From assembly GCA_023130975.1 (NCBI GenBank), contig JAGMAD010000003.1:1109-65108 (forward strand): DNA of 64,000 nucleotides, written 5' to 3'. The position numbers and the translations under genes were made by a program. A model generated the notes under the pieces. It did not search any database. It worked only from the letters and a program-made list of their open reading frames with translations, and was not told the DNA's origin. Within the stretch, counting starts at the first letter, position 1. Each line of letters starts with the position of its first letter. Shown piece after piece: positions 1,905 to 61,941 of this stretch. The DNA comes from Candidatus Parcubacteria bacterium. Its GTDB lineage: Bacteria > Patescibacteriota > Minisyncoccia > Minisyncoccales > JAGMDC01.

Positions 1905-2915
1905 ATGATAAAAAACAAACATATTACAAAAGAAAAAAGTTTTACTTTAATTGAGCTTCTTGTTTCCATAACTATTTTTGTTTTGGTCTTTCTTGCTGCT
2001 ATGGGTATTTTTGTTTCTTCATTAAAAGGAAAACAGAGGGTTAATGAACTAAAAGAAATAGAAGATAACGGCCGTTATCTCATGGAATCAATGAGTAGAG
2101 AAATCAGAATGGGAACTATTCCTGACAGTCAATCCGGCAATAATGATTCAGATTTAAGTTTTATTGACAGTGATGAAAACACTATAGTTTTTAGTTTAAA
2201 TGCAAATGATCAGTTATTAAAAAACGCTGATGTTATTAGTTCTGATAGAATTAATATTAGTAATCTTAAATTTTATGTCAATGATTTTCTAAATAATTCT
2301 ATTCAACCTGAAGTAACTATTTCAATAACTATTGAGTCGGTTGCAAATTCTTCTGTGAGTATGGATTTTCAAAATACAGTTTCATTAATGAGTAAAGAAT
2401 GTAATGAGTTTTCAATACCAATACCTCCGGGATCAGATTTGAAACGTGTATTTGTTACTTCTTCGGACTATAGCGGAGCGCTGGGAGGTTTAAATGGAGG
2501 AGATAATGAATGTCAAACGCGAGCAAATATGGCTGGCCTGGGCGGAATATGGAAGGCATGGTTGTCTGGTTCTGCCACTGATGCTAAAGATCGGATATCA
2601 GATGGTGTTTATTATGTTAAAGGACCTACTGAATCAAATATTATAGCGATGACAAAAGCAGATCTTATTGATGGAACTATAGAAAATTTAATAAAATATG
2701 ATGAAAACGGAAATTTTGTTATTGGGTATGTTTGGACAGGAACAGATGATGATGGCACAGCACATTCAAAAAATTGCAACGATTGGACATCGGATAATTT
2801 TTTTGTGGATGGACGTTACGGTCATACTATTCAAAAAAACAGGTATTGGACAGATCGGGGAAGTGATAGTTGTCATTGGTGGTACGAAAAACATCTTTAT
2901 TGTTTTGAACAATAA
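1905..2915 (+). CDS. pilin-like protein with C-terminal endostatin-like / DUF1554-type (C-type-lectin-fold) domain
   Basis: KSFTLIELLVSITIFVLVF prepilin motif. The C-terminus VFVTSSDYSGALGGLNGGDNECQTRANMAGLGGIWKAWLSG...VWTGTDDDGTAHSKNCNDWTS...CHWWYEKHLYCFEQ follows the endostatin/DUF1554 Cys pattern. Confidence 0.7.
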   Translation: MIKNKHITKEKSFTLIELLVSITIFVLVFLAAMGIFVSSLKGKQRVNELKEIEDNGRYLMESMSREIRMGTIPDSQSGNNDSDLSFIDSDENTIVFSLNANDQLLKNADVISSDRINISNLKFYVNDFLNNSIQPEVTISITIESVANSSVSMDFQNTVSLMSKECNEFSIPIPPGSDLKRVFVTSSDYSGALGGLNGGDNECQTRANMAGLGGIWKAWLSGSATDAKDRISDGVYYVKGPTESNIIAMTKADLIDGTIENLIKYDENGNFVIGYVWTGTDDDGTAHSKNCNDWTSDNFFVDGRYGHTIQKNRYWTDRGSDSCHWWYEKHLYCFEQ

Positions 2916-2920
2916 TTATA

Positions 2921-4006
2921 ATGAAATTTAATATGTTTAATTTTAATCAAAACGGCCAAATTGCTTTATTGGTTACTCTTGTCATTTTAACTGTTATTTT
3001 ATCTATTGGCGCTGGATTAACTCTTGTTACTATTAGAGAAATGGAAATGGCAAAAAAAATAGAAGAATCAGCCAAAGCTTTATCTGCTGCTGATGCCGGA
3101 ATGGAGTATGCTTTGTATAGAGTAGATCAAGATCTTATCATTGACCGGCTTTGTAGCAATGGTTGGACGTTATTAGACAATAGCAGTGAGTATTGTTTAG
3201 AGATAGTTGGAGGGACAGCTATTAAATCCATTGGCAAATTTGGGACCGTTAGAAGAGCAATTTTGTCTAATGATGAAGCAGTAATTGTTAATCCTGATCA
3301 ATATTGTAATTATTCCCATTCAGGCGACAATGTTTGTGCAGGCGGAGAATGTGGTGTGTTGCTTGGAACATGTACTGGGGTCGGAGGAGTTGGTGACCTA
3401 TTGAGTTTGGGTTTCTTTCCATCAAATATGGTGGGCCAGACCTTTAGAGTTGACACTGATGGTTATCTTTATCAGATATCAGTTTGGTCAAGTAGTTGCA
3501 CTTGTCTTGGTGATTGTTTCGCTGGCAATCCGTGCTGTTATTGGCAAATGGAGCTAAGAGATGTGGAACAAGTTGGGGTTGATGAAAGTATTAGAAATGA
3601 TCATCCCGGGGACAACGTATTAGCTGAGAGTAATATAATAGACACTCCTAGTTGTATACAACTAGGGGGTTTTTGCCAGCAGGTAGATTTTGTTTTTTCT
3701 ACTCCACATTTAGTTAACAAAGGACAGAGGTATAGTTTTGTAGTTAAGTTAACAGATATGTGGGGGAATTCTCAGGGTCCGACATGGGAACATAGGACTA
3801 GATTAAAAACAGCGGCTGATGGTCCTTATTATCCAGGTCGGGCTTGGTATACTGATGGTGGCGACACCTGGCGGGATGATTGTACTGTGATAGTGCATGA
3901 TGATTGTCCAGATTCCGGAAGTGATTTAATGTTTGAAGTTTTTATTGATCCTGATACAAGCAGTGCCGGAGTTTTATTCCGAGATTTTGAGGAAACTAGA
4001 CCATAA
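2921..4006 (+). CDS. pilus-associated protein with PilX-like N-terminal helix and Cys-rich C-terminal domain
   Basis: N-terminus NGQIALLVTLVILTVILSIGAGLTLVTIREMEMAKK resembles a PilX N-terminal domain. Many Cys in the C-terminal 250 aa. Last gene of the pilin cluster. Confidence 0.55.
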   Translation: MKFNMFNFNQNGQIALLVTLVILTVILSIGAGLTLVTIREMEMAKKIEESAKALSAADAGMEYALYRVDQDLIIDRLCSNGWTLLDNSSEYCLEIVGGTAIKSIGKFGTVRRAILSNDEAVIVNPDQYCNYSHSGDNVCAGGECGVLLGTCTGVGGVGDLLSLGFFPSNMVGQTFRVDTDGYLYQISVWSSSCTCLGDCFAGNPCCYWQMELRDVEQVGVDESIRNDHPGDNVLAESNIIDTPSCIQLGGFCQQVDFVFSTPHLVNKGQRYSFVVKLTDMWGNSQGPTWEHRTRLKTAADGPYYPGRAWYTDGGDTWRDDCTVIVHDDCPDSGSDLMFEVFIDPDTSSAGVLFRDFEETRP

Positions 4007-4101
4007 GTAAGAAAAGTAGGAATGTTTCTGACTTTTTAGCAGGCAGAGATTTATTCTCTGTTTTTCTTTTAAAAAGGAGCTATTTAAGATATAATTTAAG
4101 T

Positions 4102-6096
4102 ATGAATAAAGAACAGGTAAGAGAGAGAATTGGAAAATTGAAAAAAGTGATACAAGAAGCAAGATACAGCTATCATGTTTTGGACAAATCAATAATGTCT
4201 GATGCAGCTTTGGATTCTTTAAAGCACGAACTTTATGAATTGGAGCAGAAACGTCCTGACCTTATCACGCCCGATTCTCCTACTCAAAGGATTGGTGGAA
4301 GGCCTTTGGATGAGTTTAAAAAAGTTCATCATCTTGTTCTTCAGTGGTCATTTAATGATATTTTTAATGAGGAAGAAATAAGAAATTTTGATGAAAGAAT
4401 GAAAAGAGAACTTGGTATCAAAGAGATTGATTATACTGTTGAACTGAAAATTGATGGCATACATATTATTTTAACTTATAAAAAAGGAATATTTAAAACC
4501 GGAGCAACCCGAGGTGATGGCAAAATAGGTGAGGATGTCACTCAGAATCTAAAAACCATTGAATCAATTCCACTCCACTTAAGAGAAAATGTTGATATGG
4601 TGGCTGAGGGAGAGGTTTTTATGAGAAAATCAGTTTTTGACAAATTAAACGAAAAAAGAAAAAAATTAAATCAATCCCTGTTTGCTAATCCCAGAAATGC
4701 AGCGGCTGGCGCTATTCGCCAGCTTGATTCAAAAATTGCAGCAGAACGTTGTCTTGATTGTTATATTTATGATTATTCTTGGCCAGAAAAAGATATTCCT
4801 GAAAGCCAGTTTGAAGAATTAAAAAGATTAACAGAAATGGGCTTTAAAGTAAATAAAAAATTTCAACATTGCCAAAATATAGAAAAGGTAATTAAGTTCT
4901 GGAAAGAATGGCAGAAAAAAAAGGATTCAGAAGATTATTGGATTGATGGAATCGTGGTTAAAGTAAATAAGCGGGAACATCAGAATAAACTTGGCTATAC
5001 TGGGAAAGCGCCGCGATGGGCTATTGCTTTTAAATGGCCGGGAGAGCAAGCAACAACAATTTTAGAAAAAGTAGTTTTTCAGGTTGGCAGAACTGGAAAA
5101 ATAACGCCAGTGGCTTGGCTCAAACCAGTTAATATTAAAGGAACAATTGTTTCCAGGGCAACTCTGCATAATGCTGATGAAATTAAGCGGCTGGGAGTAA
5201 AGATAAAAGATACTGTCATTGTTGAGAAAGCTGGTGATGTTATTCCTCATATCATTAAATTTCTTTCAGAACTGAGACCCAAAAATGCTGAAAAAATTGA
5301 AATACCAAAGACCTGTCCTATTTGTGGTTCAAAAGTGATTAAATTAGAAGGTGAAGTTGCTCATTACTGCTCAAACAGAAAATGCGGAGCCAGACAAAGA
5401 AACAAGCTCTCTTGGTTTGTTTCCAAAAAGGCATTTGACATTGAAGGTTTAGGACCAAAAATCATTGACCAGTTAATGGATGAGGGTCTGGTTTCCAGGG
5501 CCTCTGATATTTTTTTATTAAAACAAGGCGACTTAAAGGAGCTGGAAAGATTTGCTGAAAAATCATCTTTTAATTTAATAAGCGCGATTGAAAAGAGCAA
5601 AACAATAACATTGCCGAAATTTATTGTCTCTTTAGGAATTAAATATATTGGAGAAGAAACTGCTGGACTGTTGGCTGAAAAAATAACAGATATTAAAAAA
5701 ATGCCCCAAGAAAATTTAGAGCAAATTAAAGGAATAGGTCCCAAAGCAACAGAGAGTATTAAGCATTGGTTTTCTCAAAAAGAAAATATTGATTTATTAA
5801 AAGAATTGGAAAAAGCAGGAGTCAGGATTGAAAAGGTTTATCCGCCAGCTGGCGGAGCGGAGAAAAGCGAAAAATTAAAAGGAAAGACATTTGTTTTTAC
5901 CGGGGAACTAAAAACAATATCCAGGGAAAAAGCCAAAGAAAAAGTAAAAGCATTAGGGGGAAAAACTCCTAATTCAATAAATAAAAATACTGATTTTTTG
6001 GTTTTAGGTCAAAATCCTGGTTCTAAGTATGAAAAAGCAAAGAATTTAGGAATAAAAATAATTTCTGAAAAAGAATTCTTAGACATTATTAAATGA
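4102..6096 (+). CDS. ligA: NAD-dependent DNA ligase
   Basis: 664 aa. KxDG adenylation motif (ELKIDG), Zn-finger CPICGS...CSNRKC, HhH region and C-terminal BRCT (GKTFVFTG). Confidence 0.97.
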   Translation: MNKEQVRERIGKLKKVIQEARYSYHVLDKSIMSDAALDSLKHELYELEQKRPDLITPDSPTQRIGGRPLDEFKKVHHLVLQWSFNDIFNEEEIRNFDERMKRELGIKEIDYTVELKIDGIHIILTYKKGIFKTGATRGDGKIGEDVTQNLKTIESIPLHLRENVDMVAEGEVFMRKSVFDKLNEKRKKLNQSLFANPRNAAAGAIRQLDSKIAAERCLDCYIYDYSWPEKDIPESQFEELKRLTEMGFKVNKKFQHCQNIEKVIKFWKEWQKKKDSEDYWIDGIVVKVNKREHQNKLGYTGKAPRWAIAFKWPGEQATTILEKVVFQVGRTGKITPVAWLKPVNIKGTIVSRATLHNADEIKRLGVKIKDTVIVEKAGDVIPHIIKFLSELRPKNAEKIEIPKTCPICGSKVIKLEGEVAHYCSNRKCGARQRNKLSWFVSKKAFDIEGLGPKIIDQLMDEGLVSRASDIFLLKQGDLKELERFAEKSSFNLISAIEKSKTITLPKFIVSLGIKYIGEETAGLLAEKITDIKKMPQENLEQIKGIGPKATESIKHWFSQKENIDLLKELEKAGVRIEKVYPPAGGAEKSEKLKGKTFVFTGELKTISREKAKEKVKALGGKTPNSINKNTDFLVLGQNPGSKYEKAKNLGIKIISEKEFLDIIK

Positions 6097-7307: not shown

Positions 7308-10300
7308 ATGAAGAACGATTCGGAAAAAGAAAAAACAAAAGAAAAAACAGCTGAAATCGGTTATGTGAAGCCCAGAGAAATTACTGAAGAAATGAAAGAA
7401 TCATATATTGATTATGCTATGTCAGTAATTGTTGCTCGGGCTTTGCCTGATGTGAGGGACGGCTTAAAACCAGTTCACCGCCGAATTTTGTATGCTATGT
7501 TGGAAGATGGCTTGCGTTATGATGCTAAATTTAGAAAGTCAGCAACTGTAGTGGGCTCGGTCCTGGGCCGCTACCATCCGCACGGCGATCAGGCAGTTTA
7601 TGATTCTTTGGTGCGAATGGCACAGGATTTTTCATTGAGATATCCTTTAATTAAAGGCCAAGGCAACTTTGGTTGTTTTACTAAAGATACAAAAGTGAAG
7701 TTGACAGATGGAAGAAGTTTAGATTTTGGAGAACTTATAAAAGAGCAAAAAGAAAACAAAAGACATTGGGGTTTTACTTTTAATCCTGAATCAAAAAAAA
7801 TTGAAATTACTGAAATAAAAAATCCTCGAAAAACTAGGATAAAAGAAAAACTAATAGAGATTACATTAGACAATGAAGAAAAAATAAAATGTACATTAGA
7901 CCATCGGCTTATGACAAGAAAAGGAGATTATAAAGAGGCGAAAGATTTGAAACCAAGAGATTCTTTAATGCCCTTATATTCCGAAATTTATAATGGAGAA
8001 GAAGATAAAAACTTAAAAGGGTATGAGAGAATTTTACAGCCAGAGCAAAACAATTGGGAATTTATTCATCATTTAGCTGATGCATGGAATTTAAAGAATA
8101 AAGTTTATAAAAAGAGCGCTGGCAGAATAAGGCATCACGTAAATTTTAATAAACTAAACAATAACCCAGATAATATTTTAAGGATTCAATGGGAGAATCA
8201 TTGGAAATATCACAAAGAAATCGCCTCTAACCGACATAAAAATGATCCAGAATATGTAAAAAATATCGCGCAAGGGAAAAAAAGGTATTGGGCGCAGAAG
8301 GAGAATAGAGAGTTACGTTCAAAACTTTTATCTGAAAGAAATAAAAAAATGTGGCAAAATCCAAAATATAGAAAAATGTGGATAGATGCTAAAAAAAAGA
8401 TGTGGCAAGATTTTGAATATAAAGAATTTATGCGAGAAGCTTCAAGAAAAAATCTTAAAAATTTATGGAAAAGAAAAGATTTTCAAGAGTTAATGAGTAA
8501 ATTGAAATCAGAAGAAATGAAAAAGAGATGGCAAAACGAGGATTACCGAAATTCTTGGAAAAAAAAGATGCGAGAAATTTCTTTAAAGATTTGGTCTAAT
8601 CCAAAACATAGAGAATATATTTCTAAGTTAGCCAAGAAACAATGGGAAAATGAAGATTATAAGAACTATATGATCTCTAAATATAAAGAGAAATGGGAAA
8701 ATGACCCGAAATTTCGAGCTAAGTCTTTGAACATTATAAGTAAAAATGGAAAATTGAATCAGAAATATAGATTCCTAAAACTCTGTAAACAAATTCTTAA
8801 AAAGAATAAAAAAATCACCCAAGAAGAATATAAAAAGCGAAGTAAAAACTACGGAGGCAGTTGTATTATAAGTTTTGAGAAAGCTATTTCTAAATATTTT
8901 AACAATAAATTAGGTAATGTTTATCAAGAAATACAACAAAGCGGACTAGTCAATCACAAAGTAATAAAAGTAAAAGTTTTAAAGAAAAAAGAAGATGTTT
9001 ATGATTTAACTACTGAACCTTGGCATAACTTTCTTCTTAATGCTGGAGTGTTTGTTCATAACTCGATTGATGGAGACCCTCCATCGGCGATGAGATATTC
9101 AGAAGCGAAACTCTCAAAAATCGGCGAAGAAACATTAAAAGATATTACTAGAGAGACAGTGAATTTTAGGGATAATTATGACGGCACTCGGAAAGAGCCG
9201 ACTGTTTTGCCGTCGCCAATGCCCCAGCTCCTATTAAACGGCTCTTTGGGTATTGCTGTAGGAATGATGACTAATATCCCTCCTCATAATTTAACAGAAG
9301 TAACTAAGGCCGCTATCTATTTAATTGATAATCCTAAAACAACCACTGAAGACCTCTTTAACTTCATCAAGGGTCCGGATTTCCCTACTGGCGGCATCAT
9401 CTATAACAGAAAAGAAATTATCAGCGCTTATTGTCAAGGTAATGGACCAATAGTGATAAGGGGGAAAACAGAGGTTTCTGAAGATAAAAAAGAGAGAAAC
9501 AGGATTTTAATTACAGAAATCCCCTATCAGGTCCAGAAATCATCTTTAGTAGAACAGTTCGCTAAGTTAGTTCAAGAGAAAAAAATTATAGGGGTAAAAG
9601 ATATTAGAGATGAATCAGATAGAGAAGGTATGAGAATTGTTATTGAGCTTCAGCGAGATGCTTTCCCTCAGAAAATTCTCAATCGGCTTTATAAATTTTC
9701 TGACCTTCAAAAGACCTTTCACTTAAATATGCTTGCCTTGGTGGACGGTATCCAGCCTAAGGTTTTATCGCTTTTGGAAGTTTTAAATTACTTTGTTTTA
9801 CACCGTAAAGAAATAGTAACAAGAAGAGCAAAATATGATTTGAAAAAAGCAGAGGAAAGAGCCCATATTTTGGAAGGGCTGCATAAATGCCTGTCAAAAA
9901 TTGATGCAGTTATAAAAACAATTAAATCATCGGCTAACAGGGAAGATGCGCAAAAGAATTTAATGAAGAAGTTTAAATTAACCGAGATTCAAGCCAATGC
10001 GATTTTGGAAACAAAACTCTCTGCTTTAGCTAAATTGGAAAGAAAGAAAATTGAAGAAGAGTTAGAAGAAAAGAAGAAATTAATAAAAGAGTTAAAAACA
10101 ATTTTGAAAAGTCCTCAAAAAGTAAAGGAAGTAATAAAAAAAGAGCTTAGGGAAGTAATAGAGAATTTTGGAGATGAAAGGAAGACCAGAGTAGTTGTTC
10201 AGAAAATTGGTGAGATTGCTGAAGAGGATTTAATTCCCCAGGAAGAAACCATTATTACTTTAACTCAAGGAGGGTACATAAAAAGAGTGAATCCTAATGT

Positions 10301-11237
10301 CTATAAAATTCAGAAAAGAGGAGGTAAAGGCATTATGGGAATGAAGACCCTGGGAGAGGACATTATTGAGCATTTTCTTTTTTGCCAAACCCATGATTTT
10401 CTGCTTTTCTTTACTGATTCCGGCAAAGTTTTTAAAATTCCGGCTTATGAAATTCCTGAAGGAACAAGAGTGGCTAAAGGCAGAGGACTTTTGAATTTCT
10501 TGGAGCTTACTCCACAAGATAAGATATTATCTATCCTTCCTTTTAAGAAACAAACCCAGGGCAATAAAGAAAACCAAGAGAATGAGATGAGGTATTTGGC
10601 AATGGCAACAAAAAATGGTATGATTAAAAAAACAGTTTTAGATGAATTTGAGAATGTCAGAAAATCAGGTCTGATTGCCATTAATCTTAAAAAAGGAGAT
10701 TTGCTTAAAAGCGTCAACAGAACTTCTGGTGAAGATGAGATGATTTTGGTGACCAAAAAAGGACAGTCAATTAGATTTAAGGAGGATAATGTTCGAGCTA
10801 TGGGCAGGACAGCTGCTGGAGTGACTGGAATAAGATTAAAGAAAGCCTCTGGCCCGTCGGGCCAACGGCTCGGAGGGGATGATGAGTTGATTGGGATGGA
10901 TGTTATAAAAACTCAAAAGATAAAAGAAAAAACACAAAACTATTTAATGGTAGTGAGTGAAAATGGGTATGGGAAGAGGACTGATTTAAGAGAATATAGA
11001 TTGCAGACCAGAGGCGGCTCAGGCATAAAAACAGCCAATGTTACCTCAAAAACAGGGGATTTAGTTGCTTCCAAAGTTCTTTTTGGAGGAGAAGAAGATT
11101 TAATTGTTATTTCCCAAAAGGGCCAAATAATTAGAACTCCTATTAATTCTATTTCCATAATTAGCAGGTCTACCCAGGGTGTGAGGATAATGCGTCTGGA
11201 AAAAGGAGATAAGGTGGCATCTGGCGCCTGCATCTAA
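7308..11237 (+). CDS. gyrA: DNA gyrase subunit A, interrupted by a 463-aa intein (mature extein about 846 aa)
   Basis: The conserved GyrA N-terminus ...RYPLIKGQGNFG and SIDGDPPSAMRYSEAKL (catalytic Tyr) are separated by a Cys...His-Asn element. GyrA C-terminal beta-pinwheel repeats are present. Confidence 0.97.
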   Translation: MKNDSEKEKTKEKTAEIGYVKPREITEEMKESYIDYAMSVIVARALPDVRDGLKPVHRRILYAMLEDGLRYDAKFRKSATVVGSVLGRYHPHGDQAVYDSLVRMAQDFSLRYPLIKGQGNFGCFTKDTKVKLTDGRSLDFGELIKEQKENKRHWGFTFNPESKKIEITEIKNPRKTRIKEKLIEITLDNEEKIKCTLDHRLMTRKGDYKEAKDLKPRDSLMPLYSEIYNGEEDKNLKGYERILQPEQNNWEFIHHLADAWNLKNKVYKKSAGRIRHHVNFNKLNNNPDNILRIQWENHWKYHKEIASNRHKNDPEYVKNIAQGKKRYWAQKENRELRSKLLSERNKKMWQNPKYRKMWIDAKKKMWQDFEYKEFMREASRKNLKNLWKRKDFQELMSKLKSEEMKKRWQNEDYRNSWKKKMREISLKIWSNPKHREYISKLAKKQWENEDYKNYMISKYKEKWENDPKFRAKSLNIISKNGKLNQKYRFLKLCKQILKKNKKITQEEYKKRSKNYGGSCIISFEKAISKYFNNKLGNVYQEIQQSGLVNHKVIKVKVLKKKEDVYDLTTEPWHNFLLNAGVFVHNSIDGDPPSAMRYSEAKLSKIGEETLKDITRETVNFRDNYDGTRKEPTVLPSPMPQLLLNGSLGIAVGMMTNIPPHNLTEVTKAAIYLIDNPKTTTEDLFNFIKGPDFPTGGIIYNRKEIISAYCQGNGPIVIRGKTEVSEDKKERNRILITEIPYQVQKSSLVEQFAKLVQEKKIIGVKDIRDESDREGMRIVIELQRDAFPQKILNRLYKFSDLQKTFHLNMLALVDGIQPKVLSLLEVLNYFVLHRKEIVTRRAKYDLKKAEERAHILEGLHKCLSKIDAVIKTIKSSANREDAQKNLMKKFKLTEIQANAILETKLSALAKLERKKIEEELEEKKKLIKELKTILKSPQKVKEVIKKELREVIENFGDERKTRVVVQKIGEIAEEDLIPQEETIITLTQGGYIKRVNPNVYKIQKRGGKGIMGMKTLGEDIIEHFLFCQTHDFLLFFTDSGKVFKIPAYEIPEGTRVAKGRGLLNFLELTPQDKILSILPFKKQTQGNKENQENEMRYLAMATKNGMIKKTVLDEFENVRKSGLIAINLKKGDLLKSVNRTSGEDEMILVTKKGQSIRFKEDNVRAMGRTAAGVTGIRLKKASGPSGQRLGGDDELIGMDVIKTQKIKEKTQNYLMVVSENGYGKRTDLREYRLQTRGGSGIKTANVTSKTGDLVASKVLFGGEEDLIVISQKGQIIRTPINSISIISRSTQGVRIMRLEKGDKVASGACI
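7674..9062 (+). mobile_element. intein (aa 123-585 of GyrA) with an HNH-type endonuclease region and about 8 basic W/Y tandem repeats
   Basis: Starts CFTKDTKVKL (Cys1). Block B is CTLDHRLMT and the end is GVFVHN followed by Ser+1. HNH-like region: GRIRHHVNFNKLNNNPDNILRIQWENHWKYH. Repeats span aa 312-472. Confidence 0.9.
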
Positions 11238-15830: not shown

Positions 15831-18008
15831 TTACTCTAAATGTATCCTTGCTTGAAATTCCTTTAATCGCTCTTCTAAAAAGGAGTGATTTTTTAATTCC
15901 GGGTCTTGTTCTAATAGTTCTTTGGCTGCTTGTCTCGTTTTTTCTATTAAAAATACATCTTTTAGAGAATCCATTATCATATCCGGGATGCCCCATTGTC
16001 TGGCGCCGGAAAAATCGCCAGGCCCCCTGATTTTTAAGTCCTTTTCAGCTAGTTCAAAACCATTTTCAGAAGAAATCAGGGCCTTGAGTCGTTGTCGTGT
16101 TTTTACTGCCCCTGATTCACTAAATAACAAACAATAGGATTGATATTTAGATCTGCCAACCCGACCTCTGAATTGATGAAGCTGGGCCAATCCAAATCTT
16201 TCTGCTCCTTCTATAACCATTACTGTTGTATTAGGAACATCAATACCAACTTCAATTACTGATGTTGAAACCAAAATGTCTGTTTTTCTGTTTTTAAAGT
16301 CCATCATTATTTTTTCTTTTTCTTTTGGTCTCATTTTTCCATGAAGCATCACGACTTTTAATTTTGGAAAAACTTCTTTTGATAATCTTTCGTATTCTTC
16401 CTTCACTGCTTTTACCTCAGCCCAAGATGATATATCTTCTTTTGAGTTTTGCTTGCCCGCCGTAGCTTTAGCAGAGGCGGGACTTTCTATCCGTGGGCAT
16501 ATCACGAAAACCTGTCTTCCCTTTTTAACTTCTTTTTTGATAAATTGATGTGTTTTTTTTCTATTTGCTGGCGCAATAACTTTTGTGATTATTTTTTTTC
16601 TTCCTTTTGGCAGTTCATCAATTAAAGATAAATCCAAGTCCCCATAAATGGTTAAAGCCAAACTTCGGGGGATAGGCGTAGCAGTCATAGAAAGCAGATG
16701 AGGAATAGTTGTTTTCGCGTCAATTTCGCGAGCAACGAGCTTTGCTCGTTGCTGAACTCCAAATCGGTGCTGTTCATCTAAAATTACCAAAGCCAATCCG
16801 CCAGGTGGCGGACCGAATTTAACTTTATCTTGAATTAAAGTATGGGTGCCGATTAAAATATCTATATCGCCCTTAATTGTTTTTTCCAATAATTTTTGTC
16901 TTGAAATTTCTATTGTTTCTTCTTTTAATTTCTTTGAAATAAATTTATCTTCTTTCCCAGTTAAAAGTCCTATATTGATATTAAAATCCTTGAATCGAGA
17001 ACTTACTTCTTTAAAATGCTGCTTGGCTAAAATTTCAGTTGGAGCCATAAAGGCAACTTGATAGCCATTTTTTATGGTTTCCAAAGCAGCTATTAAAGCA
17101 ACTATGGTTTTTCCAGAGCCAACATCTCCTTCTAAAAGCCGGTTCATTGGCCGAGATTTTTCCAAATCTTTTAAAATCTGCCAGCTTGATTTTCTTTGAG
17201 CATCGGTCAATTTAAAAGAAAGAGTTTTTACAAATTTTTTCACTAATTCAATATCCATAAGAATAGAGATTGCTTTTTCTTTATTCAGTGCCATTCTTGC
17301 TTGTAAGACGGCTAATTCAATCAAAAATAGTTCTTCAAAAGAAAATCGTTTTTGCGCTTTTTCAGCTAAATTTATTGAATCAGGAAAATGAATCTGCCAA
17401 ATGGCTTTTCCTATACTCAAAAGTTTGTTTTCTTGAATAATTTTTTGAGGGAGAATTTCCGGGATTTTATTTCCTAGATTTATTAAAAGCGGCTTAATAA
17501 TATATCGCAGCCATCGCGAAGATAATCTTTCGGTCTCTGGGTAAACCGGTACAATTCTACCAGTGTGAGTTAAATTAGATGCTGGATGCTGGATGCTGGA
17601 TTCTGGAACTTTTTCATAAGTAGGATTGGATAGATATAATCCATTGTCTCCCCTAACTACTTTTCCAGCTAAACAGACATTATCTTCTATTTTTAAAGTT
17701 TTTGTTAAATAGGGTTGGTTAAACCAAACAACTTTTATGGCGTCAGTTTTATCCTGAACAACTGCTTGGGTTAAAATCATTCTCCTTTTCCATGTTCTGC
17801 TGTTTTTAATTTCTAAGATTTTTCCCAAAATACAGCAGTTTTCATTTAACTTAATCTTGGAAATCGGTATAATATCAGAAAAATCCTCATAGCGATGAGG
17901 AAAATGATATAAAATGTCTCGTATGGTTTTAATCCCTAATTTCTTTAGTTTCTTTTGAAAAACCGGCCCAATCCTGGGTATTTGTTCAATCGAAGTTGAT
18001 AAGTTCAT
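15831..18008 (-). CDS. recG: ATP-dependent DNA helicase RecG
   Basis: 725 aa. Wedge/OB N-terminus, GDVGSGKT, DEQHRFGV, TATPIPR, QLHQFRGRVGR. Confidence 0.95.
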   Translation of the reverse strand: MNLSTSIEQIPRIGPVFQKKLKKLGIKTIRDILYHFPHRYEDFSDIIPISKIKLNENCCILGKILEIKNSRTWKRRMILTQAVVQDKTDAIKVVWFNQPYLTKTLKIEDNVCLAGKVVRGDNGLYLSNPTYEKVPESSIQHPASNLTHTGRIVPVYPETERLSSRWLRYIIKPLLINLGNKIPEILPQKIIQENKLLSIGKAIWQIHFPDSINLAEKAQKRFSFEELFLIELAVLQARMALNKEKAISILMDIELVKKFVKTLSFKLTDAQRKSSWQILKDLEKSRPMNRLLEGDVGSGKTIVALIAALETIKNGYQVAFMAPTEILAKQHFKEVSSRFKDFNINIGLLTGKEDKFISKKLKEETIEISRQKLLEKTIKGDIDILIGTHTLIQDKVKFGPPPGGLALVILDEQHRFGVQQRAKLVAREIDAKTTIPHLLSMTATPIPRSLALTIYGDLDLSLIDELPKGRKKIITKVIAPANRKKTHQFIKKEVKKGRQVFVICPRIESPASAKATAGKQNSKEDISSWAEVKAVKEEYERLSKEVFPKLKVVMLHGKMRPKEKEKIMMDFKNRKTDILVSTSVIEVGIDVPNTTVMVIEGAERFGLAQLHQFRGRVGRSKYQSYCLLFSESGAVKTRQRLKALISSENGFELAEKDLKIRGPGDFSGARQWGIPDMIMDSLKDVFLIEKTRQAAKELLEQDPELKNHSFLEERLKEFQARIHLE

Positions 18009-22645: not shown

Positions 22646-22728
22646 TGCCCAGGGCGGGACTTGAACCCGCACGCCCAAAAGGGCACGGCTCCTCAAGCCG
22701 CCATGTTTACCAATTACATCACCTGGGC
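22646..22728 (-). tRNA. tRNA-Leu (anticodon GAG)
   Basis: Reverse complement folds as acceptor GCCCAGG/CCTGGGC, D-arm ATGT/ACAT, anticodon loop TTGAGGA, 14-nt variable arm, T-arm GCGGG-TTCAAGT-CCCGC. Confidence 0.92.
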
Positions 22729-23310
22729 TTGTTTATTTTCCTCTTTTGGTTCTTCTTCGGTTTTAGGTGTCGGTTTTTCTTCAATATCTGGTTTTTCTTT
22801 AGCGACGGGTTCTTCTGTTTTTTGTTCTGATTTTGGTTCTGGTTCCCGCCCAGAGTCTTCTGGGCGAGGCTCGCTCCCTTCGGGAGCGGCAATTTTAGGT
22901 TCAGGTGTTGTTGTCACATCAGGCAGGCCTCTTCTCTTTAGACGAGCTTTTCTTCCTTTTGCCTCTCTTAAATAAAAGAGTTTTGCTCTTCTTACTTTCC
23001 CTCTTTTTATTATTTCTATTTTTGTGATAAGAGGGGAGTGAATGGGAAGAATTTTTTCTACCCCAATTCCAGAAATTACTTTTCTTATAGTAATAGTAGC
23101 GTTTATTCCTTTTCCATGCTTTCGAGCTAAAACTAAACCTTCAGAAACCTGAATTTTCTCTTTTTCTTTCTCTTTTTCTTTTATCTTTTTACTTTTAGAA
23201 CCGGATATTACTGGAATTATTTGATGAACCCGGACAGTATCACCAGGCCTGATGTCAGGCAGGTCTTTTTTTAATTGTAATTGATTAAATTTCTCTATTA
23301 TAGTTGGCAT
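22714..23310 (-). CDS. rplS: 50S ribosomal protein L19 with an internal KE-rich insertion and an ~80-aa Pro/Glu/Lys-rich C-terminal extension
   Basis: DIRPGDTVRVHQ...EGLVLARKHGKGINATITIRK...GVEKILPIHSPLITKIEII. The last 15 nt overlap the 5' end of tRNA-Leu(GAG). Confidence 0.88.
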   Translation of the reverse strand: MPTIIEKFNQLQLKKDLPDIRPGDTVRVHQIIPVISGSKSKKIKEKEKEKEKIQVSEGLVLARKHGKGINATITIRKVISGIGVEKILPIHSPLITKIEIIKRGKVRRAKLFYLREAKGRKARLKRRGLPDVTTTPEPKIAAPEGSEPRPEDSGREPEPKSEQKTEEPVAKEKPDIEEKPTPKTEEEPKEENKQAQVM

Positions 23311-24250: not shown

Positions 24251-24267
24251 AAATTTTGAGTTTTTTG

Positions 24268-24339
24268 TGGGCGTACCTGGATTCGAACCAGGAACCTCGG
24301 CCTTATAAGGACCTTGCTCCGCCATTGAGCTATACGCCC
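24268..24339 (-). tRNA. tRNA-Ile (anticodon UAU)
   Basis: Acceptor GGGCGTA/TACGCCC, D-arm GCTC/GAGC, anticodon loop CTTATAA (U34 A35 U36), T-arm CCTGG-TTCGAAT-CCAGG. A27:G43 mismatch. Confidence 0.85.
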
Positions 24340-30039: not shown

Positions 30040-30293
30040 TAATACTTATTTTAATAAAATTTTTCCTTTTAGTCAATTTTTTACCCCGTAAAATCCTGAA
30101 AGCTCTGGACTTTAGGCCAGAGATGAAAGAATTAGAAAATACAATAAAGAAAAAGCCCTGTTCTTTAGGGCAGGGATATACGGGGTTTACTTGCTTAAAA
30201 CCAAATATTGACCAAAAGGCCTAAAGTCGACTTTGGACTTTGTGTCAATATCTAATATAGTGTATAATTATGGAAGAAGTGATATAATAAAAT

Positions 30294-30414
30294 AATGAAC
30301 TACCCCGCCCCGCCAGCTGGCGGGGCGGGGCAGACCTTCTCGCCTCGCTGAAGCTACGGCGAAGCGGGCGGGCAAGTTCTTTCGGCGGCGGGGATGAGAG
30401 CCGCCGAAATAAAA
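30294..30414. repeat. GC-rich structured element, copy A (conserved ends, variable internal hairpins)
   Basis: aatgaactacccc-[hairpin ccccgccccgccagctggcggggcgggg ...]-gggcaagttctttcggcggc-[loop]-gccgccgaaataaaa. The reverse-complement homolog lies at 50849-50954. Confidence 0.7.
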
Positions 30415-30416
30415 GC

Positions 30417-31367
30417 ATGAAAGCCAAAAATCTTCTTCAGCAATTAAATATCTTCAGACAATGTAGAAAATACGGACTGCCTCTTTGTGAATGTCCACAG
30501 TTTCTTTTCGTCATAATGGGCATTGTTATTATTATTACTGCCATTAGCACTTATTTGATTGGTACCCGTTATTTAGATAATCCGGAAACAGTGGCTTTAA
30601 TTACTCTTGGATTAGCAATAGTTTTATTTATCATTTCTTTTGTTATCAATAAAAGTTTGGAGAGATTAGCTGAAGCCAATCGGATGAAGACAGAGTTTGT
30701 GAGAATAGTTTCTCATCAGTTAAGAGCGCCTTTAACTAATTTAAAGTGGAGTATTGAAATGATGATATCCGAAGGATTAGAAAATGTACAGAAGAAGCAA
30801 TTATTAGATTTTATTAAAGCGTTAAAAGAGAACAGCAATAGAATGGAAGAATTAATAAGTGATTTATTAATTGTTTCCAGAATGGAAAAAGACGGAATTC
30901 CTGATAAGAAAGAGAAAGTTAATTTAGAAGAATTGGTAAAGAAATTTGTTTCTGAATTTAAGTCCTTTGCTGATTCCTTAAATGTTGAATTAAAGATTGA
31001 CTGCCAGAAAAATCTACCAATAGTTTTTATTGACCCGAGCAAGATTAAATTAGTTATAGAAAATTTTATAGATAATGCTCTCCGTTATACTAAAGAAAGA
31101 GGAACAATTGAGATAAGATTGAGAGAATATAGAAATGATATTTGTTTTGAAGTTAAAGATGAAGGTGTCGGAATTCCCAAAGAAGATCAAAAATATATTT
31201 TCCAGAAATTTTTCCGGGCAAGCAATATCTTAAAACACCAAACCCAGGGAAGCGGTTTGGGGCTGTTTATTGCTAAGTCAGTTATAGATAAGATGGGTGG
31301 CAAAATAGGATTTAAATCCCAAGAGGGAAAAGGTTCAGCTTTTTGGTTTAAAATACCAATTAAATAA
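30417..31367 (+). CDS. sensor histidine kinase (2 TM, HisKA + HATPase_c)
   Basis: H-box FVRIVSHQLRAPLTNL; N, G1 (DEGVGIP) and G2 (GSGLGL) boxes. Confidence 0.88.
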   Translation: MKAKNLLQQLNIFRQCRKYGLPLCECPQFLFVIMGIVIIITAISTYLIGTRYLDNPETVALITLGLAIVLFIISFVINKSLERLAEANRMKTEFVRIVSHQLRAPLTNLKWSIEMMISEGLENVQKKQLLDFIKALKENSNRMEELISDLLIVSRMEKDGIPDKKEKVNLEELVKKFVSEFKSFADSLNVELKIDCQKNLPIVFIDPSKIKLVIENFIDNALRYTKERGTIEIRLREYRNDICFEVKDEGVGIPKEDQKYIFQKFFRASNILKHQTQGSGLGLFIAKSVIDKMGGKIGFKSQEGKGSAFWFKIPIK

Positions 31368-31460: not shown

Positions 31461-31841
31461 ATGAAAACTATTCTATTTATTGAAGACGAGTCGGCTCTTC
31501 AAAAAACTTTTGGAAGAATCTTAGAAGAAGAAGGATTTGAGGTAATTTCAGCTTTAGACGGAGATGTTGGTTTGAAATTAGCTAATCCGCCGGCCGGCGG
31601 AAAAAAACCTGATTTAATTTTACTGGATCTTATTCTGCCTAGACGCAATGGCTTTGAGGTCTTGAAAGAAATTAAAGAAGATGAAGAGACAAAAGATATT
31701 CCTATTATTGTTTTAACTAATTTAGAAACAATGGATAATGTGAACAAAGCTCTTGAACTTGGAGCTACTACTTATTTAGTGAAAGCAAATTATAGTTTAA
31801 AAGAAGTCATTACAAAAGTGAAACAAACCCTCGGAGAATAA
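31461..31841 (+). CDS. response regulator, receiver domain only (CheY-like), with PPAGG insertion
   Basis: ILFIEDE...PDLILLDLILP...VLTN...K. No output domain. Confidence 0.88.
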   Translation: MKTILFIEDESALQKTFGRILEEEGFEVISALDGDVGLKLANPPAGGKKPDLILLDLILPRRNGFEVLKEIKEDEETKDIPIIVLTNLETMDNVNKALELGATTYLVKANYSLKEVITKVKQTLGE

Positions 31842-50819: not shown

Positions 50820-50848
50820 TCATTAAAAAAAAGTTTTGTGTTTTTAGG

Positions 50849-50954
50849 TTTTATTTCGGCGGCGAGAATACCCCGCTGCAAGCAGTAGGGATGAAAGCCG
50901 CCGAAAGAACTTGCCCGAAGGGATACCACGTCCTTTAGGGTGGGGTAGTTCATT
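50849..50954. repeat. GC-rich structured element, copy B (inverted relative to 30294-30414)
   Basis: ttttatttcggcggc-[loop]-gccgccgaaagaacttgccc-[hairpins]-ggggtagttcatt, then tttttt. Sits after valS. Confidence 0.7.
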
Positions 50955-50982: not shown

Positions 50983-51351
50983 ATGCCTAAGATACTTTTA
51001 ATTGAAGACGAGCAAATTTTATCTGAGATGTATATAGATAAATTTTCTGAAGCAAAGTTTGAAGTAATTTCAGCTTTTGACGCTGAAAGCGGTTTAAAAA
51101 TAGCCCAGAAAGAAAAGCCAGATTTAATTGTTTTAGATATTATTTTACCTAAAAACGATGGCATTTCTTTTTTAGAGAATTTAAGAAAAAACAAAGAAAC
51201 ATCTTCAATGTTAGTTGTTGTTTTATCTAATTATGATAATCCTAAGGCAAAGAAAGAGGCACGAAGATTAGGAGCTATGGATTATTTAATAAAAACCGAT
51301 TTTACGCCAACTGGATTGACTAAAAAAATAAAAGAATATTTACCCAGTTAA
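50983..51351 (+). CDS. response regulator, receiver domain only
   Basis: ILLIEDE...KPDLIVLDIILP...VLSN...K. No PPAGG insertion. Confidence 0.88.
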   Translation: MPKILLIEDEQILSEMYIDKFSEAKFEVISAFDAESGLKIAQKEKPDLIVLDIILPKNDGISFLENLRKNKETSSMLVVVLSNYDNPKAKKEARRLGAMDYLIKTDFTPTGLTKKIKEYLPS

Positions 51352-52778: not shown

Positions 52779-54233
52779 ATGATAAACAAAAAAGATTTTA
52801 TAAAGATAAGTGATTATCTTTGGGAAATTCCTAAAAGTTTCAGTCAGTCCACCAGCCGGCGGATGCGAGTGCCTGCTCGAATTTATGCTTCGGAAAAAAT
52901 TCTGGAAGATATTTTCAGAGACAGATCTATTTCTCAATTGATAAATGGAACAACCCTGCCAGGAATTGTAAGGCATGGAATTGCTATGCCTGATTGCCAT
53001 GAAGGTTATGCGGTTCCCATTGGTTTTGTCGGAGCGATTAAAATACCAGAAGGAGTTATTTCACCTGGTGCTTGCGGTTTTGACATTAATTGCGGGATGC
53101 GATTGTTAAAATCAGAACATAAAGAAAAAGAAATCAAACCTTATTTAGATGAATTGGCAACAGGAATTCAAAAACAAGTTCCCTCTGGTTTAGGCAGAGG
53201 AAGGCAAATAAAACTTTCAATTAAAGAAATTGATAAAATTTTAGAAAAAGGAGTGCCGGGATTAGTAGAAAAAGGATACGGCGAAAAAGAAGATGTAATA
53301 AATTGCGAAGCAAATGGTAAATTAGATTGGGCAGATGCTTTTGTTGTTTCAGATTATGCTAAGAATCGGGGCAGGGACCAAGTTGGGACTCTTGGAAGCG
53401 GAAATCATTTTTTAGAAGTCCAAAAAGTAGATGAAATTTTTGATGAGGAAGTAGCTAAAGTTTTTGGGTTATTTAAAAATCAAGTTGTGATAATGATTCA
53501 TACTGGAAGCCGAGGCCTTGGCCATCAAGTTTGCACTGATTATTTAAAAACAATGATTCCAGCTATGCAGAAATACAATATTAAAGTCCCGGATAAAGAA
53601 TTTGCTTGTGTACCTTTTAGTTCATCAGAAGGTCAAAGATATTTTAAAGCCATGGCTTCTGCTGCTAATTATGCTTGGGCAAACAGGCAAATGATTGTTT
53701 ATTATACTCGTCTTGCATGGAAAAAAGTTTTGGGCAAAAAAAAGAGATTAGAATTATTATATGATGTGGCTCATAATATTATTAAAAAAGAAACATATAA
53801 AATTGATGGCGCGGAAGTAAAGCTTGCTGTTCATCGCAAGGGAGCTACTCGGGCTTTTCCGCCGGGCCATCCGGAAATCCCAGAGAAATATCGCTTAGTT
53901 GGCCAGCCGGTTTTAATTCCTGGCTCAATGGGAACAGCTTCTTATGTTTTAAATGGCCAGAAAACAGGGGAGGAAGCATTTTATTCTACCAGTCATGGTG
54001 CTGGACGAACAATGTCTCGCCATCAAGCAGTAAGGCAAATTTCTGGACAAAAAGTCATAAACGAGCTAAAATCAAAAGGTATTATTGTAAAATGCCGGTC
54101 AGATAGAGGAATTGCTGAAGAAGCGCCAATGGCTTATAAAAATATTGATGAAATAGTAGAAATTGTTCACAGAGCTGGTCTTTCAAAGAAAGTTGCTAAA
54201 CTGGTGCCATTAGCTGTTATCAAAGGAGAATGA
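52779..54233 (+). CDS. rtcB: RNA-splicing ligase RtcB
   Basis: MPDCHEGY, GSGNHF, HTGSRGLG, SHGAGR; 484 aa. Confidence 0.95.
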   Translation: MINKKDFIKISDYLWEIPKSFSQSTSRRMRVPARIYASEKILEDIFRDRSISQLINGTTLPGIVRHGIAMPDCHEGYAVPIGFVGAIKIPEGVISPGACGFDINCGMRLLKSEHKEKEIKPYLDELATGIQKQVPSGLGRGRQIKLSIKEIDKILEKGVPGLVEKGYGEKEDVINCEANGKLDWADAFVVSDYAKNRGRDQVGTLGSGNHFLEVQKVDEIFDEEVAKVFGLFKNQVVIMIHTGSRGLGHQVCTDYLKTMIPAMQKYNIKVPDKEFACVPFSSSEGQRYFKAMASAANYAWANRQMIVYYTRLAWKKVLGKKKRLELLYDVAHNIIKKETYKIDGAEVKLAVHRKGATRAFPPGHPEIPEKYRLVGQPVLIPGSMGTASYVLNGQKTGEEAFYSTSHGAGRTMSRHQAVRQISGQKVINELKSKGIIVKCRSDRGIAEEAPMAYKNIDEIVEIVHRAGLSKKVAKLVPLAVIKGE

Positions 54234-58243: not shown

Positions 58244-58534
58244 CCCCCCACCACTTTTTATGTTTTATGTATATCTTTTGAAAAGCAAAAAAGATAAAAA
58301 GTTTTATATTGGATTAACCTCGAATCTAAAAAGAAGATTTAAAGAACATAATAATGGGTATACAAGATCTACAAAGGGCAGAAGGCCATTTGATATAATA
58401 TACTATGAGGCATATCTAAATTTTGAAGATGCGAAAACAAGAGAATCAAGATTAAAGAAATTCAAGAATTCATATACAGAGTTAAAAAAGAGAATACCCC
58501 GTAGCTTAAAAGAAGTATAAAAAGTGGTGGGGGG
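58244..58534. mobile_element. single-gene GIY-YIG cassette bounded by 16-bp perfect inverted repeats
   Basis: ccccccaccacttttt (58244-58259) abuts the ATG. aaaaagtggtgggggg (58519-58534) overlaps the TAA. Confidence 0.55.
58260..58520 (+). CDS. GIY-YIG nuclease family protein (86 aa)
   Basis: FYVYLLKSKKDKKFYIGLTSNLKRRFKEHNNG. Confidence 0.85.
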   Translation: MFYVYLLKSKKDKKFYIGLTSNLKRRFKEHNNGYTRSTKGRRPFDIIYYEAYLNFEDAKTRESRLKKFKNSYTELKKRIPRSLKEV

Positions 58535-60672: not shown

Positions 60673-61941
60673 ATGAAATTTATAGCTGATTTTCATCTTC
60701 ATTCTAAATATTCAAGAGCGACCAGCCCGCAAATGGATTTAGAGAATATGGCTCAATGGGCGAAAATAAAAGGTATAGATATTTTAGGGACCGGTGATTT
60801 CACCCACCCGGAATGGTTCAAAGAACTGAAAGAAAAATTAGAACCAGCAGAACCAGGACTTTTTAAATTAAAAAACAGTGATTCTGAAACTCGTTTTATT
60901 TTAACCGCTGAAATTAGTTGTATTTACTCAAAAGGCGGAAAGGTTAGAAAAATTCACATTGTGGTTTTTGCTCCTTCTTTGGAAATCGTAGAAAAAATCA
61001 ATACTCAATTGGGATGGATTGGCAATTTGAAAGCCGATGGTAGACCAATTTTGGGATTGGATGCTAAGGAATTAGCAAAGATTGTTTTAAGTATTTCAAA
61101 AGATTGCTTGATTGTACCTGCTCATTGTATGACCCCATGGTTCGGCATCTTTGGTTCTAAGTCAGGGTTTGATTCTATTGAAGAATGCTTTGAAGATTAT
61201 TCAAAACATATTTATGCAATAGAAAGTGGTTTAAGCGCGGACCCAGCAATGCTTTGGCGAATACCTGATGGCCGAAAGCTTACTATAATCTCAAACAGTG
61301 ACGCGCATAGTCCAGCTAAGCTTGGAAGGGAAGCAAATGTTTTTGAAGGCGAGGAATTAAGTTATAATTTGATAGTTCAGGCAATAAAAGCCGGGGGAGG
61401 CCCGGCCTCCCCCAATTTCTTGAAACTGATTTACACAATTGAATTTTATCCTCAAGAAGGGAAGTACCATTATGACGGCCATCGCAATTGCGGAATTAGC
61501 TTATCGCCTTCAGAGGCAAAAAAATATAATAATATCTGTCCTAATTGCGGTAAGCCATTAACTATTGGAGTTTTAAACCGAGTAGAGGAATTAGCAGATA
61601 AACCAGAGGGATTTAAACCAGAAGAAGCTATTCCTTTTAAAAGTTTAGTCCCCTTAGAAGAAGTAATTGCTGAAAGTTTGGGTCAAAATACAGGAACGAA
61701 GCAAGTAGAAGCAGAGTATAAAAATTTAATTGAGAAATTTGGTCAGGAGTTTAAGATTTTATTAGATATTTCCAAGACAGATTTAGAATCAGCAACTTTG
61801 CCAGAAATTGCTGAAGGAATCATAAGAGTAAGACAGGGAAAAGTTAATGTTGAGCCCGGTTATGACGGCGTTTTTGGCAAAGTAAGAATTTTTTCTAAAG
61901 CAGAACAAAAAGAATTACCAAACCAAAAAACTTTATTCTAA
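60673..61941 (+). CDS. endonuclease Q-like PHP-domain protein (TIGR00375 family)
   Basis: FIADFHLHSKYSRATSPQMDL...GTGDFTHPEW, Zn-finger CPNCGK. Confidence 0.75.
   Translation: MKFIADFHLHSKYSRATSPQMDLENMAQWAKIKGIDILGTGDFTHPEWFKELKEKLEPAEPGLFKLKNSDSETRFILTAEISCIYSKGGKVRKIHIVVFAPSLEIVEKINTQLGWIGNLKADGRPILGLDAKELAKIVLSISKDCLIVPAHCMTPWFGIFGSKSGFDSIEECFEDYSKHIYAIESGLSADPAMLWRIPDGRKLTIISNSDAHSPAKLGREANVFEGEELSYNLIVQAIKAGGGPASPNFLKLIYTIEFYPQEGKYHYDGHRNCGISLSPSEAKKYNNICPNCGKPLTIGVLNRVEELADKPEGFKPEEAIPFKSLVPLEEVIAESLGQNTGTKQVEAEYKNLIEKFGQEFKILLDISKTDLESATLPEIAEGIIRVRQGKVNVEPGYDGVFGKVRIFSKAEQKELPNQKTLF

Follow-up and report, generated by a model that had tools for sequence, protein, structure and literature searches.

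The stretch of DNA analysed here, 64 kb from a Candidatus Parcubacteria bacterium (contig JAGMAD010000003.1) and called the window as a whole, is the sole part of its genome that was read. It has a GC content of 33.5%, and its close relatives are Minisyncoccales- and Nealsonbacteria-labelled Patescibacteria genomes; the loci and genomes of relatives compared with it are labelled L and a number, and homologues P and a number. Within it lies a recurrent 16-base GC-rich palindrome, TCCGCC-N4-GGCGGA (pattern TCCGCCNNNNGGCGGA), found in ligA, recG and a response regulator gene as exact matches, in rtcB as a degenerate copy, and between genes as the core of a longer palindrome:

5841-5856, plus strand: perfect palindrome in ligA, TCCGCCAGCTGGCGGA, an exact match
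16797-16812: palindrome in recG, TCCGCCAGGTGGCGGA, an exact match; the gene lies on the minus strand and its coding strand reads TCCGCCACCTGGCGGA
31586-31601, plus strand: perfect palindrome in the receiver domain of the response regulator, TCCGCCGGCCGGCGGA, an exact match
52848-52863, plus strand: degenerate copy in rtcB, TCCACCAGCCGGCGGA, with one mismatch
30303-30330, plus strand: intergenic perfect 28-nt palindrome CCCCGCCCCGCCAGCTGGCGGGGCGGGG, with core CCGCCAGCTGGCGG, the first hairpin of a 117-nt element

The three exact matches compare with none in 100 dinucleotide-preserving shuffles of the window. Allowing up to two mismatches adds two further sites, the rtcB copy and positions 30309-30324 (CCCGCCAGCTGGCGGG), giving five observed against a shuffle mean of 0.32, with no shuffle reaching five. 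An earlier note on this DNA, made from the sequence alone, had reported a GC palindrome at five places, and all five are there. It had also held that a motif at random frequency would undo its proposal, and the count lies far above the shuffles. The hexamer GGCGGA/TCCGCC occurs 30 times in the window (~6 expected), and GC-rich perfect hairpins of any kind number 18 versus 0.47 in Markov simulations. Shuffles, codon usage and synonymous-site tests together rule out chance or a codon artefact. An assembly artefact is likewise ruled out: NCBI, ENA and Logan assemblies from several samples all give the same regulator allele, and related regulator alleles occur in unrelated JGI metagenomes.

Inside genes, the palindromes lie at surface loops throughout. 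They encode PPxGG in four genes (ligA, recG, the regulator and NusA of another genome), and the earlier note correctly gave the peptides as YPPAGGA (ligA), GPPPGGL (recG, minus strand) and NPPAGGK (receiver); the phase in rtcB gives SASxR. In recG, the regulator, rtcB and NusA the net gain relative to orthologues is +12 nt, or 4 codons. The note had estimated an insertion of ~6 codons in the regulator, where comparison with the paralogue at 50983 and with orthologues gives 4 codons and 12 nt net. Its emphasis on the palindrome being always in frame carries little weight, as this is trivial for coding insertions that survive and the rtcB copy is in another codon phase.

The regulator is a stand-alone receiver domain of 126 aa, four residues longer than the window paralogue (122 aa). 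The insert, encoding (N)PPAGG, sits in the alpha2-beta3 loop, where alignment with Thermotoga RR468 leaves a 4-residue gap. It is absent from 7/7 syntenic orthologues and from ~70 metagenomic relatives. NPPAGG is present in 87 of the 120 regulator homologues listed, in a search biased to shared words, and homologues with or without it make up more than 85 protein clusters. Four independent metagenomic lineages, whose regulators are only 72-76% identical to that of the window, all carry AAT/GAT CCG CCA GCT GGC GGA, which is TCCGCCAGCTGGCGGA. Across these lineages 5/5 four-fold codons inside the insert are identical, versus 3/20 conserved ones outside (P ~8e-5), and the synonymous sites flanking the insert are saturated. 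The insert codons are minority codons of this genome; given the peptide and the genome's codon usage, the PPAGG codon string has a probability of ~0.003 per lineage, yet it is the same in all four.

Over the 100 nt around the regulator insert, insert-bearing alleles are no more alike than in the rest of the gene, so sequence identity is confined to the palindrome, and recent shared ancestry of the flanks is not seen. To judge from these alignments, the regulator insertion is old and not a recent hop. Its bases have stayed constant between saturated flanks, which argues for constraint or drive at the nucleotide level rather than a neutral passenger. The centre of the palindrome reads AGCT in most lineages, AGCC in L235 and GGCC in the window; the step from AGCC to GGCC regained perfect symmetry, and positions 7 and 10 would be loop bases in an RNA, an argument drawn from one lineage series only. 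The 6-nt arms have been kept constant at synonymous positions over long divergence, while the central 4 nt vary and have drifted back to symmetry. Decayed copies exist in the L133 regulator, in the window rtcB and in several regulator protein variants. The other outcome that the note had named as telling against it, an orthologue with PPAGG but no palindrome, was not found, and the decayed L133 copy has lost both. Within-species comparison is uninformative, the strains being too similar. In L104 (6119-6141) and L105 (1281-1303), two substitutions upstream (GCT AAT to GCG GAT) create a third arm, TGGCGGA-TCCGCCA-GC-TGGCGGA, which looks like templated copying of one arm.

In recG the insert encodes PPPGG directly before helicase motif II (DEQH), where comparison with the Thermotoga and E. 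coli structures gives a 4-residue gap, and 118 of 120 close RecG homologues read VKFG-x-LALV without it. Relatives with the empty site have AAA TTT GGA AAT TTA, versus AAA TTC GGT CCG CCA CCT GGC GGA TTG in the window, so that the four bases AAAT are swapped for the 16-mer (GG[AAAT]TTA to GG[16-mer]TTG, net +12 nt). The same codon holds three different palindromes: that of the window, TCCCGGCCCATCGGGA in L012 and one with a CCGCCGGCGG core in L234, whose recG also has a local AGGL duplication. Insertion with target duplication was considered for recG and rejected, since removing the CGG...CGG repeat would delete a universally present residue.

The rtcB site tells a similar story in another phase. 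SF-RSD-MRVP is read in 116 of 120 RtcB homologues, and SF-SQS(A/T)S(R/W)R-MRVP in the window and three relatives; in DNA, AG[A TCG GAT]ATG becomes AG[C CAG TCC GCC AGC CGG CGG]ATG between flanks that are otherwise 91-96% identical. The window copy itself is TCC ACC AGC CGG CGG (STSRR), in codon phase 1 and with a net gain of +12 nt. Because relatives carry TCCGCCAGCCGGCGGA (L174) and TCCGCCAGTTGGCGGA (L173) at the same place, the site is a true member of the family. The earlier note had called it degenerate, an account to which the different codon phase is to be added. A TCGA-like target for a 12-nt palindrome was also considered and rejected: the empty rtcB site has TCGGA, yet the lengths do not fit.

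The ligA insert, encoding (Y)PPAGG, lies in the variable linker between the HhH and BRCT domains. A wider insert at 5842-5862 (CCGCCAGCTGGCGGAGCGGAG) differs at 2 positions from the right part of the 28-nt intergenic palindrome. The site is empty in L012 and holds a different GC-rich insert in L009 and L010, while L010 and L012 have another 33-nt hairpin elsewhere in the gene. A local duplication, GCGGA-GCGGA, is visible in ligA. NusA of L016, a genome of 39% GC, carries the identical TCCGCCAGCTGGCGGA as H-PPAGG-E in a KH2 hairpin, and ~55 other NusA genes in the compared loci lack those 4 residues.

Larger relatives built on the same core occupy intergenic DNA, and one of them is a 117-nt unit with a flanking direct repeat. 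The features concerned, with a second recG insert that resembles part of this unit, are:

30300-30416, plus strand: 117-nt GC-rich insertion with three hairpins, defined by alignment against the close relative L009/L235, which lack it
50845-50952, minus strand: second, diverged copy of the family of the 117-nt element, sharing TGAACTACCCC..., GGGCAAGTTCTTTCGGCGGC and GCCGCCGAAATAAA with 30296-30416
16452-16472, minus strand: second GC-rich in-frame insert in recG, AKATAGK, GCTAAAGCTACGGCGGGCAAG, absent from three close relatives

The site at 30303-30330, which the earlier note had listed as a plain intergenic occurrence, is accordingly a perfect 28-nt palindrome inside this 117-nt insertion. 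The insertion sits directly after the original start codon of a histidine kinase gene, and the direct repeat ATGAA that flanks it (30295-30299 and 30417-30421; ~11 nt with imperfect matches) recreates that start codon. Its predicted fold has an energy of -74.1 kcal/mol (z = -5.35). The distant genome L169 contains 34 contiguous nt of it without a difference, and L012 has a stretch that is similar. Rfam gives only weak sub-threshold matches to the element and, over the whole window, finds only tRNAs at the gathering threshold; a known RNA family was therefore rejected. The second recG insert resembles the middle of the element (GCTGAAGCTACGGCG...GGGCAAG), and by such matches both it and the ligA insert are possible fragments of the 117-nt unit. 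In L009 the kinase start codon falls ~7 nt after a TATAAT box, so that the transcript looks leaderless. The insertion gives the kinase gene of the window a long structured leader with a short upstream open reading frame (ORF; MNYPAPPAGGAGQTFSPR, then stop), and from this arrangement it probably alters expression of the histidine kinase-response regulator-PilB (HK-RR-PilB) operon.

The distribution of the insert is patchy. In a tree of the PilB and histidine kinase flanks (trees here are neighbour-joining on short alignments), insert-bearing regulators fall into three separate clades, each with empty sister lineages. In a tree of RtcB built from its insert-free parts, the sequences that carry the insert likewise form two clades, and some alleles without it nest close to the window. 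Two metagenomic genomes, L097 (filled) and L122 (empty), share 93-100% identity across most of 7 kb, interrupted by a mosaic of divergent blocks of 65-79% identity. In the regulator gene the two are identical for ~55 nt upstream and ~140 nt downstream of a patch of ~110 nt centred on the palindrome, with ~20 substitutions and the indel. The patch has the signature of short-patch recombination, seen in a single pair picked for differing at the site. The blocks as a whole are taken to indicate that these populations often recombine over short patches with divergent donors. Empty alleles never resemble simple 12-nt deletions of filled ones, so precise excision is not the cause of the patchiness. 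From these comparisons, filled and empty alleles are swapped between related lineages by short-patch homologous recombination. Two other readings were rejected: flank-derived inverted duplication (P-nucleotide or fold-back), as GGCGGA is missing from empty sites and the lengths do not add up, and translational bypass of the T4 gene 60 or byp type, as the insert has neither a stop codon nor a matching pair of take-off and landing codons.

GC-rich inserts of other sequence are common in these genomes. Unbiased comparison of the window with three syntenic relatives revealed numerous in-frame indels in which the added DNA can form hairpins and has a GC content of 55-85%, with ordinary AT-rich indels beside them. 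Many inserts confined to particular lineages, with a high content of Pro, Gly, Ala, Arg and Ser, also appear in the alignments of RecG and RtcB homologues. A survey of 853 kb from 74 AT-rich Patescibacteria loci gave 79 GC-rich perfect hairpins versus 12.3 expected, 65 of them inside long ORFs.

We propose, with confidence that is about evenly balanced, that AT-rich Patescibacteria (Minisyncoccales/Nealsonbacteria-like) harbour a family of palindromic repeats, rich in GC and able to form hairpins, of which TCCGCC-N4-GGCGGA is the smallest member and which is comparable to repetitive extragenic palindromes (REP), Rickettsia palindromic elements (RPE) or mitochondrial GC clusters. That it is a real sequence family, inserted relative to orthologues with a constant +12 nt, at loops and in two codon phases, is plain from the alignments. 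Insertion is of a replacement type, exchanging about one codon for five in coding sequence. New copies would be templated from existing ones by DNA-level copy-and-insert or gene conversion, as proposed for RPEs, mitochondrial GC clusters and REPs, and selection would afterwards leave just the in-frame, loop-located copies. Conservation of the arms would then come from a sequence-specific partner, such as a protein on two inverted half-sites, or from a hairpin-based self-correcting drive.

Several observations weigh against this proposal. Copy density is low, at 5 per 64 kb, and one 64-kb window does not yield a genome-wide copy number. Filled/empty comparisons of the 16-mer reveal no terminal inverted repeats, target-site duplication or conserved flanking tetranucleotide, and no transposase, Y1/RAYT protein (RAYT, REP-associated tyrosine transposase) or obvious nuclease partner is annotated across the window. 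Recurrence at one site could reflect permissive loops and recombination instead of targeting. The long nucleotide conservation of the regulator copy is unlike a neutrally decaying selfish insert, and fits a functional site equally well. The earlier idea of a spreading element tolerated as Pro/Gly loops accordingly survives in part. A single family, insertion relative to orthologues, loop positions, the same 16-mer in a NusA gene elsewhere and an intergenic copy that is part of a larger, repeat-flanked insertion bear it out; the age and constancy of the regulator copy speak against a recent hop and a neutral passenger, and patchiness is at least partly due to short-patch homologous recombination.

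The strongest rival, and one compatible with a repeat family, is a functional DNA site, in which inverted TCCGCC half-sites with a 4-bp spacer are bound by a dimeric protein and kept by selection, and insertion is the sole route by which such a site arises in AT-rich genes. Candidates are a chromosome-organising signal like parS or Noc sites, an operator or a DNA-uptake signal. We regard this as possible but doubtful. It would explain why the arms are invariant at synonymous sites beside saturated flanks, why the same arms occur in five genes, and why the variable centre was restored to symmetry, which an RNA tetraloop does not require. One copy lies in a promoter/leader region and one within the same HK-RR-PilB operon, type IV pilus and competence-type genes are close by, and the recombination patch has the site at its middle, as expected of biased uptake or homing. 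Against it, many close relatives lack the site at each locus, copies decay (L133, window rtcB, protein variants), density is far under that of known uptake sequences, the sequence is unlike canonical parS, which the window lacks, no candidate binding protein was identified, and the many unrelated GC hairpin inserts are left unexplained. A bolder reading, which we consider unlikely, makes the 16-mer the recognition site of a sequence-specific Patescibacteria enzyme or DNA-handling system (a homing-type nuclease, a recombinase or uptake/recombination machinery), written in by replacement of 4 nt with 16 and driven into the homologous sites of related lineages by very short gene-conversion tracts. 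If true, such a 'homing palindrome' would be the smallest mobile genetic unit described.

Readings at the level of RNA, local mutation or peptide fit less well. An mRNA hairpin with a 6-bp GC stem and 4-nt loop might be selected because it stabilises or punctuates polycistronic transcripts or slows ribosomes, possibly with Pro-Pro; local folds of -12.6 to -17 kcal/mol, of which recG and the regulator beat shuffles, the varying loop bases on kept stems and the many other inserts that are hairpins with GAA/GAAG-type loops are in its favour. We nevertheless find it improbable: the arm sequence itself is conserved across genes beyond pairing, the DNA copies read contain no G-U or compensatory arm variants, positions 7 and 10, which changed as a pair, fall in the would-be loop, the ligA fold is not better than shuffles (z = -1.16), and the copies occupy two codon phases and either strand relative to neighbours, with no positional rule within genes. 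A slightly smaller chance still is given to there being no family at all, with local template switching or slippage at an existing Gly-Gly pair (GGC GGA) and likeness by convergence. The abundance of the hexamer in the window, the local duplications (ligA, L234, and the third arm in L104/L105) and replacement-type events without transposon hallmarks suit such an origin, but GGCGGA is missing from empty sites, and TCCGCC 4 nt upstream of GGCGGA is expected by chance at ~1e-3 per window and seen 3 times. The identical 16-mer with an AGCT centre also occurs in unrelated genes and genomes, and the core is common to the repeated 117-nt element. Nor did closely related filled/empty pairs show inserted bases that were consistently an inverted copy of the adjoining sequence. 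Selection on PPAGG as a useful turn or motif, with the palindrome a by-product of codon choice, is very improbable indeed. PPxGG does occur in four genes and is widely conserved across the regulator family; the rtcB phase, where the same DNA gives SASRR or SASWR, and the synonymous-site result already contradict it, as do the codon string shared by four diverged lineages and the existence of an intergenic copy.

The proposed repeat family has partial counterparts in other systems. RPEs are 100-150 bp long, have a family-specific consensus and are confined to Rickettsia. They were reportedly described by Ogata et al. in Science in 2000. Like them, the palindromes here are repeats in frame in unrelated conserved genes, absent from orthologues (as found in recG, the regulator, rtcB and NusA), at tolerant positions and retained over speciation. 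Unlike them, the unit is 16 nt (12 nt net), with a largest relative of 117 nt, and is GC-rich in an AT-rich genome, found in Patescibacteria and strictly conserved in its arms. The PstI-type GC-rich palindromes of Neurospora mitochondria are reported to have been described by Yin et al. in 1981, and GC clusters of yeast mitochondria include in-frame insertions in var1 (review PMC8811140). These, too, are short GC-rich palindromes in AT-rich genomes that are strain-polymorphic, sometimes in-frame coding, recombination-associated and variable in loop regions, and polymorphism between close relatives is equally found here. They differ in being organellar and typically 30-60 nt long, with AG/TAG terminal repeats taken as target duplications, whereas filled/empty pairs here show replacement without duplication, and a flanking repeat (ATGAA) only at the 117-nt element.

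REP and bacterial interspersed mosaic elements (BIME) are reported to be associated with RAYT transposases (PMC3733652). The 28-nt palindrome and the three-hairpin 117-nt unit resemble clusters of REPs, which are 20-40-nt dispersed hairpin palindromes. REPs, however, are extragenic with a GTAG/CGTC tag, and here 4/5 window copies are inside genes, the flanks of all copies differ and none has the tag. No Y1 (IS200/IS605-like) transposase is among the genes annotated across the window. As to miniature inverted-repeat transposable elements, the 117-nt element has its flanking direct repeat and no terminal inverted repeats were seen at its ends; no target-site duplication accompanies the 16-mer, for which, being itself a 16-nt palindrome, terminal repeats are meaningless. 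parS/Noc sites and uptake sequences sit inside genes and arise by point mutation. The 16-mer is like the former as a perfect 14-16-bp palindrome within coding sequence that is nucleotide-conserved across species, and like the latter in its spread by recombination and tolerated reading frames. It differs from both in arising as a 12-nt insertion rather than by point mutation, and from uptake sequences in its density: these are over-represented genome-wide at ~1 copy per kb, while the window has 5 in 64 kb and motif-bearing relatives at the regulator locus have a single copy in up to 10 kb. parS itself was rejected: no match to the TGTTNCACGTGNAACA consensus within 2 mismatches was found in the window, and the 16-mer is unrelated in sequence.

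The genomes of Patescibacteria are tiny and streamlined, and their rRNA genes are known for odd insertions. The literature searched, for the sequence and for palindromic insertions in the candidate phyla radiation, holds no prior description of the palindrome and does not describe repeat elements inside essential protein genes of Patescibacteria. If the palindrome is selfish, the gene-invading palindromic DNA of Rickettsia and of yeast mitochondria would have a counterpart, with a much smaller unit, in a major bacterial radiation; if it is a recognition site, it would offer a handle on DNA uptake, segregation or regulation in unculturable organisms. In either case the inserts mark permissive loops in RecG, RtcB, LigA, GyrA, NusA and receiver domains, and serve both as lineage markers and as a source of homoplasy in alignments.

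Two further GC-rich inserts, both among the enriched perfect hairpins, lie in genes of the window:

10845-10877, plus strand: 33-nt insert forming a GC-rich hairpin in the C-terminal domain of gyrA, encoding ASGPSGQRLGG, with core TGGCCCGTCGGGCCA; L009, L010 and L012 lack it
61390-61413, plus strand: GC-rich palindrome GGGGGAGGCC-C-GGCCTCCCCC encoding KAGGGPASPN of a PHP-domain protein, at a loop whose length varies

Other GC hairpin inserts occur near this gyrA site in L010 and L012, and the PHP-domain loop exceeds the length found in ~45 aligned homologues. The gyrA gene (7308-11237) also holds a 463-aa intein at 7674-9062 (CFTKD...VFVHN; Pfam Intein_splicing), which is missing from the three closest relatives, where gyrA measures 843-844 aa or is split.

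Other repeat-like sequences accompany these inserts in the relatives. A recurrent 15-25-residue insert family, '...(N/H)PVR...(K/Q)...(S)NG(V)', occurs at different positions of the RecG/RtcB homologues P0001, P0003, P0013, P0113, P0119, P0247 and P0303, and looks like the translation of a longer hairpin element of the CCCGTTAGA...TCTAACGGG type. A second palindrome family, CCTGCC...GGCAGG, recurs in L018 (13868-13887 and 14366-14381) and in L015, L026, L054, L066, L085 and L175. In two pilin paralogues its translation, PAGRQG, directly precedes the prepilin cleavage motif (GFTIIE), some copies lying in pilin leader peptides; elsewhere it encodes LPAQAG. In L170, another Patescibacteria contig, five copies of CGTCCGGCATGCGCCGGACG with a 74-nt period form two blocks at 2803-4728, an array that is possibly CRISPR-like. 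A phage origin of the 16-mer was rejected: the exact sequence is found in 55 viral contigs, most of which are GC-rich, consistent with chance, while a few have AT-flanked extended hairpins of doubtful relevance.

Around the kinase operon, a hairpin-rich stretch at ~30066-30235 (CCCCGTAAAATCC...GGGATATACGGGG) is found between tRNA-Pro and the kinase promoter; L009 lacks it, and no other copy turned up in the compared loci. Between the pilB-like gene and trpS, a 51-nt insertion relative to L235 (33639-33689) includes the inverted repeat ATGTCGGG...CCCGACAT. Two small genes were not linked to the palindromes, one at 591-941 for a 23S-rRNA-intervening-sequence-type protein (PF05635) and one at ~58260-58520 for an 86-aa GIY-YIG domain protein. 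At 24267-24339, ARAGORN predicts a tRNA-Ile with anticodon TAT, unusual for bacteria. Finally, rplS (22714-23310, minus strand) encodes ribosomal protein L19 with a long low-complexity C-terminal tail, its ORF end overlapping tRNA-Leu. This tail contains two GC-rich hairpins, CGCTCCCGAAGGGAGCG and CGCCCAGAAGACTCTGGGCG, at 22847-22888, which are common to L012 and variable in L009 and L010.

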